Sequence record: OL960581
DNA length: 64,000 nucleotides
DNA from: Escherichia phage vB_EcoM_SA20RB
Strand: one strand, 5' to 3'
Shown one piece after another: positions 58,423 to 64,000 of this stretch. Under the pieces are notes generated by a model, which did not search any database, was not told where the DNA came from, and saw nothing but the letters and a program-made list of their open reading frames with translations. Position 1 is the first letter of the stretch, and every line of letters begins with the position of its first letter. Made by a program: the position numbers and the translations under genes.

Positions 58423-58631
58423 AACCATGTAACCTTTAAGCAATATTCTTCTACATGTTGTTTACGACCTTTCCTATCAATAAAGGTATATTCAACAAAT
58501 GTTCCAATATAGTCTTTATCTACATCATGAGGACTATTAATTGGGCATTTAGTACGGCAAATGCGTTCCCATTGACGAATAATTTCTGCTTTGTTTTTAG
58601 GATCAAACGGATGCGGGTAATGTACTTTCAT
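58419..58631 (-). CDS. hypothetical protein (70 aa)
   Basis: ATG start. Confidence 0.45.
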   Translation of the reverse strand: MKVHYPHPFDPKNKAEIIRQWERICRTKCPINSPHDVDKDYIGTFVEYTFIDRKGRKQHVEEYCLKVTWL

Positions 58632-59082
58632 AATCCACCACTATTAAATCAATATCAGGAGTAAACATGTCGATTAATTTAGAAACCTTATCCCAATCAC
58701 CGCCAGCAATACCACAACCTATGCGTGGAATGTAAATTACTGGTTTAAACAAAAGGGTCTCTGCCTGTAGATTTAATTCTATCATGCAGTTTACTAAAGC
58801 ACCATAATCAAGATTAGGACCCGGTTCGTATTGCGTATACAGGTTATAGCATATACCAAATCCCGTAGGACTATGTTTAAAAACAATAGACATATCGCCT
58901 AATTTATCGCGAGAACCGTACTCGGTAGTAGTTTTATCTATTTCTAAAATTTTAGGATAGGCCCTCGCTAATTGACCCGCTACACCTGAACCCATAGTAT
59001 GAAAGCAGTTGCACCCGTGCGCAATAATATTACCTTGAAGAAATAGGGCGACAATATCGCCCTTGATATATTTTACAATCAT
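58603..59082 (-). CDS. macrodomain protein, TARG1/OARD1/DarG-like (putative ADP-ribose hydrolase, 159 aa)
   Basis: motifs GDIV..AHGCNCFHTMGSGVAGQ and PRIGCGIAGGDW resemble TARG1 HCISEDCRMGAGIA and PRIGCGLD; GAGGA SD. Confidence 0.55.
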   Translation of the reverse strand: MIVKYIKGDIVALFLQGNIIAHGCNCFHTMGSGVAGQLARAYPKILEIDKTTTEYGSRDKLGDMSIVFKHSPTGFGICYNLYTQYEPGPNLDYGALVNCMIELNLQAETLLFKPVIYIPRIGCGIAGGDWDKVSKLIDMFTPDIDLIVVDYESTLPASV

Positions 59083-59426
59083 CTAGTACTCAATCCTCGA
59101 TTATAAGAATCTACCAAACGGTCAACCATTGAATGACAAGCGGCTTTATCTTTCTCCTCCGCAACTGAACATTCTAAGGTATTCCACTTTTTAGCATATC
59201 GTTTTAACAATGTATCATTTTTATATCTACTTGATTTATCTCTTTCTCCGTCTTTATATGCATATATTAATTTCTGCGCAAATTCAGCTTGGCATGCTTT
59301 ATTTTTCCCACAATAATCTGCCGCAGTGCGATTTACATATTCTCTAATTTCAGTATATGATGTATCTGCTGACGCAGAAGCAGAAAATGAAATTAATCCT
59401 ATACATAAAACCAAAATTTTAGTCAT
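59079..59426 (-). CDS. secreted/periplasmic protein (115 aa)
   Basis: signal peptide MTKILVLCIGLISFSASASA; four Cys. Confidence 0.5.
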   Translation of the reverse strand: MTKILVLCIGLISFSASASADTSYTEIREYVNRTAADYCGKNKACQAEFAQKLIYAYKDGERDKSSRYKNDTLLKRYAKKWNTLECSVAEEKDKAACHSMVDRLVDSYNRGLSTR

Positions 59427-59964
59427 TTACTATTTCCAAAAGTTTATTATTTTTAAGGTAATTAGCCTTTTCTAGGACTTCAGAAGCATATTTAGAACCT
59501 GCTTTAACATTCCATCCCGAATTATAAGAGGATATTGCTTTTCTTATATCACCCTTATGTATATTTAACCAATAAGAAAGTTCAATGTACGCCCAGGAAG
59601 CTGAATTGGATCGTTTATTCAACATTCTTTTTATTTCGGCATCGGTCATATTATAACCAAGTTCCTTAACTCTTGCTCGCATAGTAGGCAAATAATTTTG
59701 GAACATTCCGTAGGCGTGATGCTTTGGTTTAGATTTTAAATTAACTCCGGCAGAGCTTTCTTGCCATAAAATAGCAGCCATTATATGACCCAATCCGCTC
59801 TTGTGGATGTTTTTGTGTGTTTTATATTTTCCATCCTTAGAAAATTGTTCCCCGAATTGATATGCGTAGCGCATGTTATCGAGTTGGACATTACTGAAAG
59901 TATGCTCGGAGCTATGTGCCATCATTGAAATGGCCAATAGACCAGCGAGTAGTGCTTTTCTCAT
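59419..59964 (-). CDS. periplasmic lytic transglycosylase-like protein (SLT domain, 181 aa)
   Basis: signal peptide; SLT-like motifs LWQESS, GMFQ, SSYNSGWN. Confidence 0.5.
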   Translation of the reverse strand: MRKALLAGLLAISMMAHSSEHTFSNVQLDNMRYAYQFGEQFSKDGKYKTHKNIHKSGLGHIMAAILWQESSAGVNLKSKPKHHAYGMFQNYLPTMRARVKELGYNMTDAEIKRMLNKRSNSASWAYIELSYWLNIHKGDIRKAISSYNSGWNVKAGSKYASEVLEKANYLKNNKLLEIVND

Positions 59965-59971
59965 GCTTACC

Positions 59972-60433
59972 TCATTGAGTTTTAATTACGGCTTTAGAAG
60001 CCTTTCCTGGTAAACGACGACTGTTGATAATTGCCATCCTACATTGAAGTGACGGGTCTTTGAACTTCGCGTTAGGTTTACAAACTGTAAATCCAAGCCA
60101 AAGATTTCCATCTGTGATTTCTAAACGTCCAGGACGATATTCAACCCCATCAATAAAATCCTCGTCAATGTCAGGACGCGGAGGCATACTCAGGAATTCA
60201 TTAACTTCTAAAACATGGTCTTTTATTTTGTGGAATAATTCAAAAACATATGTCTCATCAATCTCCCGTTGAATTGCACGATCAAGAAGATGTTGAGAAT
60301 ATTTTAGATGAAACGATGAGACCCCTGCTGCTTTTGATGCCTCACGAATCTCATTGTTAATTTGACGAAACTCCGACTCAAAGTGACGACGAAGTTTATT
60401 TCGACGGATAAAAACTTCTGTATTGATAGTCAT
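59972..60433 (-). CDS. regB: endoribonuclease RegB (153 aa)
   Basis: 153 aa; N-terminus MTINTEVFIRRNK; early promoter upstream. Confidence 0.75.
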   Translation of the reverse strand: MTINTEVFIRRNKLRRHFESEFRQINNEIREASKAAGVSSFHLKYSQHLLDRAIQREIDETYVFELFHKIKDHVLEVNEFLSMPPRPDIDEDFIDGVEYRPGRLEITDGNLWLGFTVCKPNAKFKDPSLQCRMAIINSRRLPGKASKAVIKTQ

Positions 60434-60460
60434 GTTATTCTCCTCTTAACTGATAGAAAA

Positions 60461-60490
60461 ATTATACCACAGTCAAGAGGAAAAGTAAAC
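60461..60490 (-). promoter_or_regulatory. T4-type early promoter
   Basis: plus attata 60461-60466, gtaaac 60485-60490. Confidence 0.55.
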
Positions 60491-60492
60491 AA

Positions 60493-60771
60493 TTATTCTT
60501 TAAATCTAATCAATTTATTCATAGACTTTGTAACTTCTGCACGAACCTCATGTAGGTTTTTAAGCTGTTCAAGACGCTGCTCATAGTAAGCAATTTCATC
60601 TTCTTCGAGACAGTCCTGTGAATCTTCTTTAAGATAACGTGCATAGTCCTGGAAAGCTTTACGGACTACTTCCTGGAAGTCATCAAGACTTTGAATTTTC
60701 TTAGGAGCAACAGATACACGACGAGGGGCAGTATAATACTCATAACCAAACCCTGCGCTTAATTGGGCCAT
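60493..60771 (-). CDS. hypothetical protein (92 aa)
   Basis: ATG 60769-60771 in TAATG overlap with upstream stop (track start GTG 60813). Confidence 0.4.
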
Positions 60772-61948: not shown

Positions 61949-62491
61949 TCATTGCATTCCGATTACGAAAAACTGCGGACGAGTAATACCACCAATGCAG
62001 CATTTACTATTGCAGCAGTGTTGCACAGTTTCAATATGAATATCGTAAATTTTATCCATATCAGGAGATTTAACAGGCTCATCGATTATATACAAAATTC
62101 GAGAAAGCGATAAACCTCTGAACTTGCTACCTCTATTACCAACAAAACTACGGACAGAATCAGTAAATAAACGGAATCGAATATCATCGCTAGAATAACG
62201 AGAAAATTCTTTTTTAATGCGGCCCGCAGAAATTTTAGCGTAAGCTGAAGTATTAGAAAGAACAATAACTGTTCCACCATCATACAACCAATTAGCGGCA
62301 AAATTAGTTACTGCAGTTGATTTACCAGATTGTCTGCCACCATCTAAACGAAGTGTACAATATTCTTTAAATAAATGCGACGAATCAGGTACATAAAATC
62401 CACTATTACAAATTTCTTCTACTCTAGCATCAGAATGGTGTGTAAAAGCATTCATCAGGGATAGATAAGGACCAGTTAAAAATGTTCTCAT
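61949..62491 (-). CDS. small P-loop NTPase (180 aa)
   Basis: Walker A GGRQSGKST, Walker B ILYIIDEP; ATG start. Confidence 0.5.
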   Translation of the reverse strand: MRTFLTGPYLSLMNAFTHHSDARVEEICNSGFYVPDSSHLFKEYCTLRLDGGRQSGKSTAVTNFAANWLYDGGTVIVLSNTSAYAKISAGRIKKEFSRYSSDDIRFRLFTDSVRSFVGNRGSKFRGLSLSRILYIIDEPVKSPDMDKIYDIHIETVQHCCNSKCCIGGITRPQFFVIGMQ

Positions 62492-62631
62492 TTCTTCTCT
62501 CTAAGTTTGGGCCATTCCATGGCGCATGAATTGTCCATTTCTGTATTTACCCATTACCGCACTTGGGCTCGACCTTATTACAGGTTGGCGGGAATCCCTC
62601 ACAGAATCATGAGGTCCAGGTTGTTCCCATA

Positions 62632-63105
62632 TTATTTGAACGATTTAACGTACTGAATAGAACCTTTACTATTCACGAAAGCGATTTTACCATTTTTATT
62701 ATACATGGTAGCAGTACGCTGATAGCCATAAGTTTGCTTACCAGATTGATAACCAACTAATGCAAAATTATCTTCACCCATTTTATTCTGTTTAGCACGA
62801 ATGCGTTCATGACCATGTGCCATAAGAACCTTAGCATCACCAGTTGCAATGGATCTACGAGTTTTTTCATCTTCAACTGTATTAACAAAGTCGTCAAATG
62901 AATCAAATTTAGCATGAGATTTATTATACAGTTTTCCATCTACTGCATAATTATATCCCTGTACATCCATCTCAACTTCTGTACCATCATCCAATACAGC
63001 AGTGATTTTCTGTCCTTTTTTAAATTTCAAAAGATCAGTAAAAGATTCAGCAATAATTTGAGAATTAATAGCTGCTTCAGTAATAAATTCTTGATATGTT
63101 TTCAT
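62632..63105 (-). CDS. capsid internal protein with N-terminal capsid-targeting sequence (157 aa)
   Basis: N-terminus MKTYQEFITEA matches T-even IP capsid-targeting sequence (MKTYQEFIAE); AAAGGAAA SD. Confidence 0.6.
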   Translation of the reverse strand: MKTYQEFITEAAINSQIIAESFTDLLKFKKGQKITAVLDDGTEVEMDVQGYNYAVDGKLYNKSHAKFDSFDDFVNTVEDEKTRRSIATGDAKVLMAHGHERIRAKQNKMGEDNFALVGYQSGKQTYGYQRTATMYNKNGKIAFVNSKGSIQYVKSFK

Positions 63106-63159
63106 GTGTTTCCTTTAAATATTTTAATTAGTAATCTATTTATTTAAGTAACTGTGAAT

Positions 63160-63189
63160 ATACTATCACAGTTTTAGGAGAAAGTAAAC
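63160..63189 (-). promoter_or_regulatory. T4-type early promoter
   Basis: plus atacta 63160-63165, gtaaac 63184-63189. Confidence 0.5.
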
Positions 63190-63193
63190 AACT

Positions 63194-64000
<807 letters not shown>

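Follow-up and report, generated by a model that had tools for sequence, protein, structure and literature searches.

The genes vs.1 and vs lie next to each other on the minus strand of the DNA analysed here, a stretch of 64,000 nucleotides from Escherichia phage vB_EcoM_SA20RB (sequence record OL960581), hereafter the window. We lean towards reading this pair from the regB operon as a conserved early envelope-directed module of T4-like phages, comprising a periplasmic lytic transglycosylase, Vs.1, and a small exported helical partner, Vs. The observations that carry this reading are direct ones: the identity of the genes, the predicted fold, the conservation of sequence motifs and export signals, the linkage of the two genes and their early expression in T4.

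The window is a segment of a Tequatrovirus genome, that is, of a T4-type phage, and the pair consists of the known T4 genes vs.1 and vs. The vs.1 product is identical to T4 Vs.1 (UniProt P13311, ORF 61.4) at 180 of 181 residues, and the vs product to T4 Vs (UniProt P13310, ORF 60.9, where ORF stands for open reading frame) at 115 of 115; the latter also matches PHROG 1256 (E=1.7e-39). In the window as in T4, vs.1 stands between regB and vs. Bases 58500-60500 show 98% DNA identity to Shigella phage Shfl2 and Citrobacter phage CrRp10, and DNA similar to this segment is present in 722 phage records.

The pair is, as such, a rediscovery of two catalogued T4 genes, and calling Vs.1 an enzyme adds little by itself. 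An early, predicted exported lytic transglycosylase that is widespread in phages could nevertheless matter to the envelope biology of infected cells. What merits follow-up is the conflict between the annotation of Vs and the export features that its family conserves, along with the close pairing of its gene with vs.1.

Lytic-transglycosylase features of Vs.1

Vs.1 matches the Pfam SLT domain (PF01464) over residues 61-154, with a score of 23.4 bits that passes the gathering score of 21.3 by a narrow margin (E=4.8e-5). An AlphaFold2 model of the protein, built on an alignment of 31 sequences, reached a predicted local distance difference test score (pLDDT) of 88 and a predicted template modelling score (pTM) of 0.82, and is confident outside the N-terminal 20 residues, for which pLDDT is low. 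The predicted fold is alpha-helical and lysozyme-like, and can be superimposed on solved lytic transglycosylases; Foldseek supports this assignment with weaker statistics. A first-pass annotation, made from the sequence alone, had called the 181-residue protein SLT-like on the strength of the motifs LWQESS, GMFQ and SSYNSGWN, and had proposed structure prediction as a check. All three motifs are present, and the Pfam match, the lysozyme-like SLT fold given by AlphaFold2 and Foldseek, and the intact catalytic glutamate bear that call out.

Residues E69, G86, F88, Q89, Y147, N148 and G150 are invariant among 31 homologues, down to 41% identity. The predicted catalytic acid, E69, is followed by an equally invariant serine, S70, the two residues closing a helix that spans residues 59-70 of the model. 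In profile alignments, which are statistically weak, E69 aligns with E64 of MltE and E505 of Slt70 (precursor numbering), and the YGMFQ segment aligns with IGLMQ and SGLMQ of these E. coli enzymes; the pairwise alignments are consistent with the fold result. The G-M-F-Q segment matches the family-1 motif G-L-M-Q, with F88 replacing methionine, and S-Y147-N148-S-G150 corresponds to the family-1 motif A-Y-N-x-G. Vs.1 has no conserved second acidic residue, which would make a transglycosylase likelier than a hydrolase. Direct searches of the PDB sequences with Vs.1 and Vs returned chance-level matches only, a Vs.1 profile run against the same sequences gave a weak match to a goose-type lysozyme (E=0.4), and an NCBIfam search gave nothing useful.

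The SLT-like nature of vs.1 is already known from publications of 2003-2006. For six T4-like genomes, Nolan et al. (2006) described a marginal SLT match of vs.1, and as cited there, an earlier PSI-BLAST link of vs.1 to lysozyme stands in the 2003 T4 genome review. Several database entries already bear the name 'transglycosylase SLT domain-containing protein', and T4 Vs.1 is entered as 'SLT domain-containing protein'.

By tblastn, Vs.1 was found in 2084 records of the phage collection, including those of Felixounavirus and Ackermannviridae. The relatives in these two groups are about 30% identical and keep both the signal peptide and the catalytic motifs. In Felixounavirus the gene directly follows rIIA-rIIB, and in Ackermannviridae it follows the gp46/47 genes; the surroundings in both groups are early or DNA-metabolism genes rather than lysis genes. 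Escherichia phage tootiki (locus L006, 5001-5549) and Klebsiella phage May (L007, 4953-5570) carry such relatives outside Straboviridae.

In the periplasm of the infected cell, Vs.1 would act as a soluble family-1 (glycoside hydrolase family 23, GH23) lytic transglycosylase with Glu69 as its single catalytic acid. It would cut the bonds between N-acetylmuramic acid (MurNAc) and N-acetylglucosamine (GlcNAc), leaving 1,6-anhydroMurNAc ends.

Export signals, cysteines and the label of Vs

Rule-based analysis, used for all signal peptides described here, found the same architecture at both N-termini: a basic n-region, a hydrophobic core of 11-13 residues and a small-x-small cleavage site. In Vs.1, the n-region MRK is followed by the h-region ALLAGLLAISMMA and a site between AHS and S; in Vs, MTK is followed by ILVLCIGLISF and a site between SASA and D. 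Vs.1 would be exported by the Sec pathway and cleaved after AHS18, giving a predicted mature protein of 163 residues that begins with SEHTFSNVQLDNMR. Vs would be exported likewise and cleaved after ASA20, giving a predicted mature protein of 95 residues and 11.0 kDa that begins with DTSYTEIR.

Export-type N-termini are kept throughout the relatives compared, which comprise 52 distinct proteins of the Vs.1 type and 44 of the Vs type. Their conservation is lower than that of the mature parts, with a mean identity of 0.40 against 0.61; in the Vs family, identity to the window protein is 0.39 over the N-terminal 20 residues and 0.61 over the rest. Lower conservation of this kind is expected of signal peptides, and the signals are therefore not a chance feature. 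We infer from these sequence patterns that Vs.1 and Vs are Sec-exported, in keeping with the first-pass annotation, which had described both as secreted.

Among 12 close homologues of Vs, the residue at position -1 of the cleavage site is invariably alanine and that at -3 is small. In four Vs-like proteins a lipobox (LSGC) replaces the signal peptidase I site, as in MKKLFVLLIVFALSGC, and these homologues are therefore predicted to be lipoproteins. One group of T4-like phages (loci L041, L042, L045 and L061; P0096) has a Vs homologue in which the lipobox reads FALSGC and is followed by K, at about 3549-3875 in L041, L045 and L061 and at 2495-2821 in L042. That T4 Vs is itself a lipoprotein was considered and rejected, because its LVLC sequence has leucine at -1 and Cys8 is not conserved.

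The mature region of Vs contains four cysteines, at positions 39, 45, 86 and 97, all invariant in the 12 close homologues; the cysteines that the first-pass annotation had noted in a secreted protein of 115 residues are thus confirmed. All 44 distinct Vs-like proteins combine an export-type N-terminus with exactly four cysteines in the mature region, and the four cysteines are retained in the more distant members of the family as well. The AlphaFold2 model of Vs (pLDDT 83) comprises four helices (residues 22-39, 43-63, 70-86 and 91-113) and places the cysteine pairs at two helix-turn-helix junctions, which suggests that Vs is stapled by two disulfides. After export it would be an 11-kDa four-helix protein. 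A fold search with Vs returned generic helical bundles and no informative match. An exhaustive profile search of 1.84 billion representatives yielded 8 proteins, all from the same small family, so no distant family provides a functional clue.

Databases uniformly name Vs 'valyl-tRNA synthetase modifier'. Such a label needs a cytoplasmic protein, and would conflict with the export signals predicted for Vs. Together with the cysteine pairs, these signals contradict an annotation that has been copied into hundreds of phage genomes, which could point either to a possible correction of a long-standing gene assignment or to an unusual dual-compartment protein. A 2021 study expressed full-length His-tagged Vs in the cytoplasm and recovered it in inclusion bodies. 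The original sequence record, X04567, lists the gene as ORF 60.9 only, without the name vs, and evidence tying the genetic vs locus to ORF 60.9 was not found in a literature search whose reach did not extend to the primary vs papers. Elsewhere in the T4 GenBank record (gene 40; L094, 4050-4394), gp40 is noted as once 'misidentified as spackle gene', a documented T4 case of a classical locus attached to the wrong ORF.

Expression, linkage and neighbouring genes

In the window, vs.1 and vs would be transcribed early, within a polycistronic regB-vs.1-vs-tk.4 message. The nearest promoter able to drive regB-vs.1-vs is the early-type one just upstream of regB (Table 1). Only 7 nucleotides separate the regB stop codon from the vs.1 start codon, with no terminator in between. 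Pattern scans of the minus strand found no T4 late-promoter box between 57263 and 63702 and no MotA-box pattern between regB and vs. In T4, the RNAs of regB, vs.1 and vs are classed as early and the Vs.1 and Vs proteins as middle, and the mass spectrometry (MS) intensities of both proteins climb through infection (Wolfram-Schauerte et al. 2022, supplement). The early RNA class and the MS detection show that Vs.1 and Vs are real proteins expressed from early transcripts. The early expression proposed in the first-pass annotation agrees with this promoter layout and with the T4 omics data. Translation of vs would be coupled to the termination of vs.1 through the overlap ATGACTAA, within which vs begins.

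Several other sequence elements accompany the operon. The ribosome-binding site of regB (60440-60450, minus strand) is AAGAGGAGAA and includes GGAG, which the T4 record gives as the cleavage motif of RegB itself; GGAG is missing from the vs.1 site, GAGGT. A perfect GC-rich palindrome, AGGGCGA-TATTG-TCGCCCT, occurs at 59045-59063, just inside the 5' end of tk.4. It begins 16 nucleotides after the vs stop codon, is followed by a T-rich stretch on the minus strand and is flagged as terminator-like by the scan; a partial terminator, or an element of RNA stability, might thereby separate vs from tk.4. Within tk.4, a MotA-box-like middle-promoter pattern (TGCTTTA, spacer, TAGAAT; 58776-58801, minus strand) could drive the downstream genes tk.3-tk. 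Over the whole window, 19 MotA-box-like patterns were observed and 6.5 were expected.

The linkage of vs.1 and vs was assessed in 55 IMG/VR loci encoding Vs.1 relatives and in five annotated phage regions, scanned with a hidden Markov model (HMM) of the Vs family. A Vs-like gene directly follows vs.1 in every T4-like locus (53/53), the gap ranging from -8 to +3 nucleotides. Conversely, each of 27 independently found Vs loci lies on a contig that also carries Vs.1 (27/27). The 53 T4-like loci include those of Acinetobacter phages, whose Vs.1 and Vs share about 40% and about 20-25% identity, respectively, with their counterparts in the window; neither regB nor tk.4 was detected near vs.1-vs in these phages. 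The rate of evolution of Vs is about double that of Vs.1, the mean pairwise distances being 0.60 and 0.33, respectively. The tblastn counts, 795 records for Vs against 2084 for Vs.1, had raised the possibility that Vs is often absent beside Vs.1; within the T4-like phages this was rejected as an artefact of sensitivity, given the result of the HMM scan. Several T4-like genera have an additional ORF of 130-145 residues, placed immediately after the Vs-like gene and before the tk.4 homologue (loci L019-L023, L038, L039, L041-L045, L047, L052 and L061). It is absent from the window.

The minus strand carries every gene of this region, and the order of transcription is regB, vs.1, vs, tk.4. The first-pass annotation had reported two consecutive ORFs at 59079-59964, and both were recovered at exactly these positions, on the minus strand. 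It had also placed the pair upstream of regB and far from the endolysin and structural genes, and here it has to be amended. Because the genes are transcribed from right to left, the pair lies downstream of regB. The endolysin gene e is only 3.2 kb away on the same strand, with an internal-head-protein-like gene in between. Nor had that annotation recognised the pair as T4 vs.1 and vs, and it therefore missed both the published SLT similarity and the conflicting label of Vs. Between e and the 180-residue ORF at the vs.8 position (61949-63688, minus strand), the window has a single ORF, of 157 residues. This ORF occupies the position at which Shfl2 has its 157-residue Ip4 gene and T4 has denV, ipII and ipIII; the part from the vs.8 position to e is therefore variable among close relatives.

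Table 1. Features of the vs.1-vs region, in window positions counted from the first base
Feature	Position	Strand	Basis or remark
vs.1 coding sequence, 181 residues, predicted exported family-1 (GH23, SLT-type) lytic transglycosylase	59419-59964	minus	
Sec signal peptide predicted for Vs.1 (residues 1-18), cut between AHS and S	59911-59964	minus	rule-based n/h/c analysis
Glu69 codon, predicted catalytic acid (WQES motif)	59758-59760	minus	invariant in 31 homologues
vs coding sequence, 115 residues, predicted exported four-helix protein, cysteine pairs C39/C45 and C86/C97	59079-59426	minus	
Sec signal peptide predicted for Vs (residues 1-20), cut between ASA and D	59367-59426	minus	rule-based n/h/c analysis
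8-nucleotide vs.1/vs overlap, ATGACTAA; vs start codon inside the vs.1 end	59419-59426	minus	sequence read directly
vs.1 Shine-Dalgarno sequence GAGGT, overlapping the regB stop codon	59969-59973	minus	sequence read directly
Early-type sigma-70 promoter, TTTACT / 17-nucleotide spacer / TG-extended TATAAT	60461-60489	minus	scan 10/12 plus TG extension
regB, RegB endoribonuclease	59972-60433	minus	Pfam REGB_T4, E=1.4e-68
tk.4, macro-domain protein	58603-59082	minus	Pfam Macro, E=1.3e-7; overlaps the vs stop codon by 4 nucleotides
Internal-head-protein-like gene, between the pair and e	62632-63105	minus-strand region	
Gene e, T4 lysozyme endolysin	63194-63688	minus	translation and T4 map; 3.2 kb upstream of the pair

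Candidate roles and known systems

From the features described above we infer the actual export of the two proteins, the enzyme activity, the disulfides, any contact between Vs and Vs.1, and their physiological role. The most likely job of the pair would be non-lytic remodelling of the sacculus during infection.

A number of results weigh against a joint envelope module. The gene regB stands directly upstream of vs.1 in 49 of the 53 related loci and gene order is generally kept, so the adjacency of vs.1 and vs alone is weak evidence of a shared function. A mirror-tree comparison gave no extra signal of co-evolution, the correlation between Vs.1 and Vs (r=0.65) being lower than that between Vs.1 and RegB (r=0.90). 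The charges of the two proteins are not consistently complementary either: Vs.1 is uniformly basic, with an isoelectric point (pI) of about 9.6, while Vs proteins have pI values between 4.3 and 9.1. Vs.1 relatives with no adjoining Vs occur in Felixounavirus, Ackermannviridae, one Aeromonas phage and a few other contigs; these, too, retain a signal peptide and the catalytic motifs and have early or DNA-metabolism genes, not lysis genes, around them. The Vs homologue is truncated in one locus (L024, 3541-3798; 85 residues and two cysteines) and split into two ORFs in another (L044, 3549-3746 and 3691-3876), which implies that Vs is dispensable in some phages and that the gene occasionally decays. 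Vs shows no relation in fold or sequence to the lysozyme and transglycosylase inhibitors Ivy, MliC/PliC, PliG, PliI and Spackle. Our literature search found no experiment on Vs.1 and none on the export of Vs.1 or Vs; on the function of vs.1 and Vs it yielded nothing beyond the comparative-genomics paper of 2006, mentions in annotations and a single expression study, in which Vs was insoluble. Lastly, the database label makes Vs a modifier of host valyl-tRNA synthetase, a cytoplasmic enzyme. In older literature, vs mutations reportedly affect growth on valS(ts) hosts in vivo, an effect that speaks for a product of the genetic vs locus acting in the cytoplasm.

The main competing reading takes the textbook label for Vs as correct. 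Vs would then be the cytoplasmic tau factor and bind the valyl-tRNA synthetase of the host, its hydrophobic N-terminus would be no working export signal or would permit only partial export, and its position after vs.1 would reflect inherited gene order with no bearing on function. Uniform database naming and literature use favour it, as do the strong synteny of the block in general, with regB and vs.1 adjacent in most loci, the lack of a co-evolution signal between Vs.1 and Vs in the mirror-tree, and the valS(ts) effect mentioned above. The factor described in papers of the 1970s is said to have been of roughly 10 kDa, and mature Vs, at 11.0 kDa, comes near to it. However, a signal peptide or lipobox together with four invariant cysteines occurs in all 44 distinct homologues, a pattern that would be hard to keep without export. 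The record X04567 likewise gives no more than the ORF designation and a link between the vs locus and this ORF was not found, and the gp40/spackle case shows that another gene-to-ORF mix-up occurred in T4. Taken together, we consider a purely textbook role rather unlikely.

We put forward tentatively, as something just short of an even call, that ORF 60.9 does not encode, or does not only encode, a cytoplasmic valyl-tRNA synthetase modifier. Its product may instead be an exported, disulfide-stapled periplasmic protein, lipid-anchored in some phages, that forms a conserved, translationally coupled envelope module of T4-like phages with the early Vs.1. If true, either the 50-year-old vs label sits on the wrong ORF or the association with valyl-tRNA synthetase arises outside the normal compartment, and T4 carries an unstudied early cell-wall-remodelling system.

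Vs.1 could alternatively be an accessory lysis enzyme, placed in the periplasm in advance and adding to wall breakdown after the holin fires. A muralytic fold, an intact active site and a predicted export signal are compatible with such a role, and the Felixounavirus homologue is annotated as 'putative lysin'. Nonetheless, expression is early, not late, with no late promoter, and in T4-like, Felixounavirus and Ackermannviridae genomes no holin or spanin gene adjoins vs.1, whose neighbours in the window are regB, vs and tk.4. Vs.1 thus lacks the late expression and the holin/spanin linkage that define an endolysin or lysis cassette. In addition, T4 has a dedicated endolysin, encoded by e at a distance of 3.2 kb, and e mutants do not bring about lysis; Vs.1 on its own is therefore not enough to lyse the cell. 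We regard the lysis role as improbable.

Less plausible still is a role in superinfection exclusion or in resistance to lysis from without, in which the pair would alter the wall against incoming phages or act as a decoy for the tail lysozyme. Early expression and predicted periplasmic targeting suit the timing of exclusion, and there is a second gene directed to the periplasm, rI, about 2.4 kb downstream; against this, exclusion in T4 is, as far as known, the work of Imm and Spackle, and an enzyme that cuts glycan strands should weaken the wall rather than seal it. The analysis gave no direct support to the roles that the first-pass annotation had suggested, namely superinfection exclusion, DNA entry and an inhibitor-like decoy. 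Finally, it is very improbable that Vs.1 has lost catalysis and retains the SLT fold only to bind the wall or act as a decoy: a Pfam score barely above threshold and weak sequence matches to solved lytic transglycosylases could be read that way, but the catalytic glutamate and both other family-1 motifs are invariant in the 31 homologues and are retained in the Felixounavirus and Ackermannviridae proteins, at roughly 30% identity.

Set beside known systems, Vs.1 of the window is the same gene as T4 Vs.1 in a close relative, with no difference of substance. Vs is identical in sequence to its T4 counterpart, whose assigned function in valyl-tRNA synthetase modification stands against the export signals and four cysteines of the family. 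Bacterial family-1 lytic transglycosylases of GH23, namely E. coli Slt70, MltE/EmtA and MltC and P. aeruginosa MltF and Slt, are about 13-19% identical to Vs.1. Unlike these enzymes, Vs.1 is a minimal single domain with an N-terminal helix and hairpin of its own (residues 25-47), has no lipid anchor or accessory domains, and is phage-encoded and expressed early. Virion-associated lytic transglycosylases (phiKZ gp144, T7 gp16 and PRD1 P7) and signal-arrest-release (SAR) or secreted endolysins are structural or late lysis proteins, whereas Vs.1 is small, bears a cleavable-type signal and not a SAR anchor, and is expressed early from a position among early genes.

For the possible role of Vs, the nearest functional precedent is T4 Spackle (gp61.3), an early protein with a cleaved signal peptide that forms a small helical bundle with a disulfide and acts as a periplasmic inhibitor of the gp5 tail lysozyme. 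The idea that Vs is a Spackle homologue was rejected, as the two have no sequence relation. By analogy, Vs would bind Vs.1 or modulate it, acting next to it or upon it. This is the most economical guess, and only a guess; its model is Spackle of the same phage, in which a small, exported helical protein with a disulfide regulates a muramidase.

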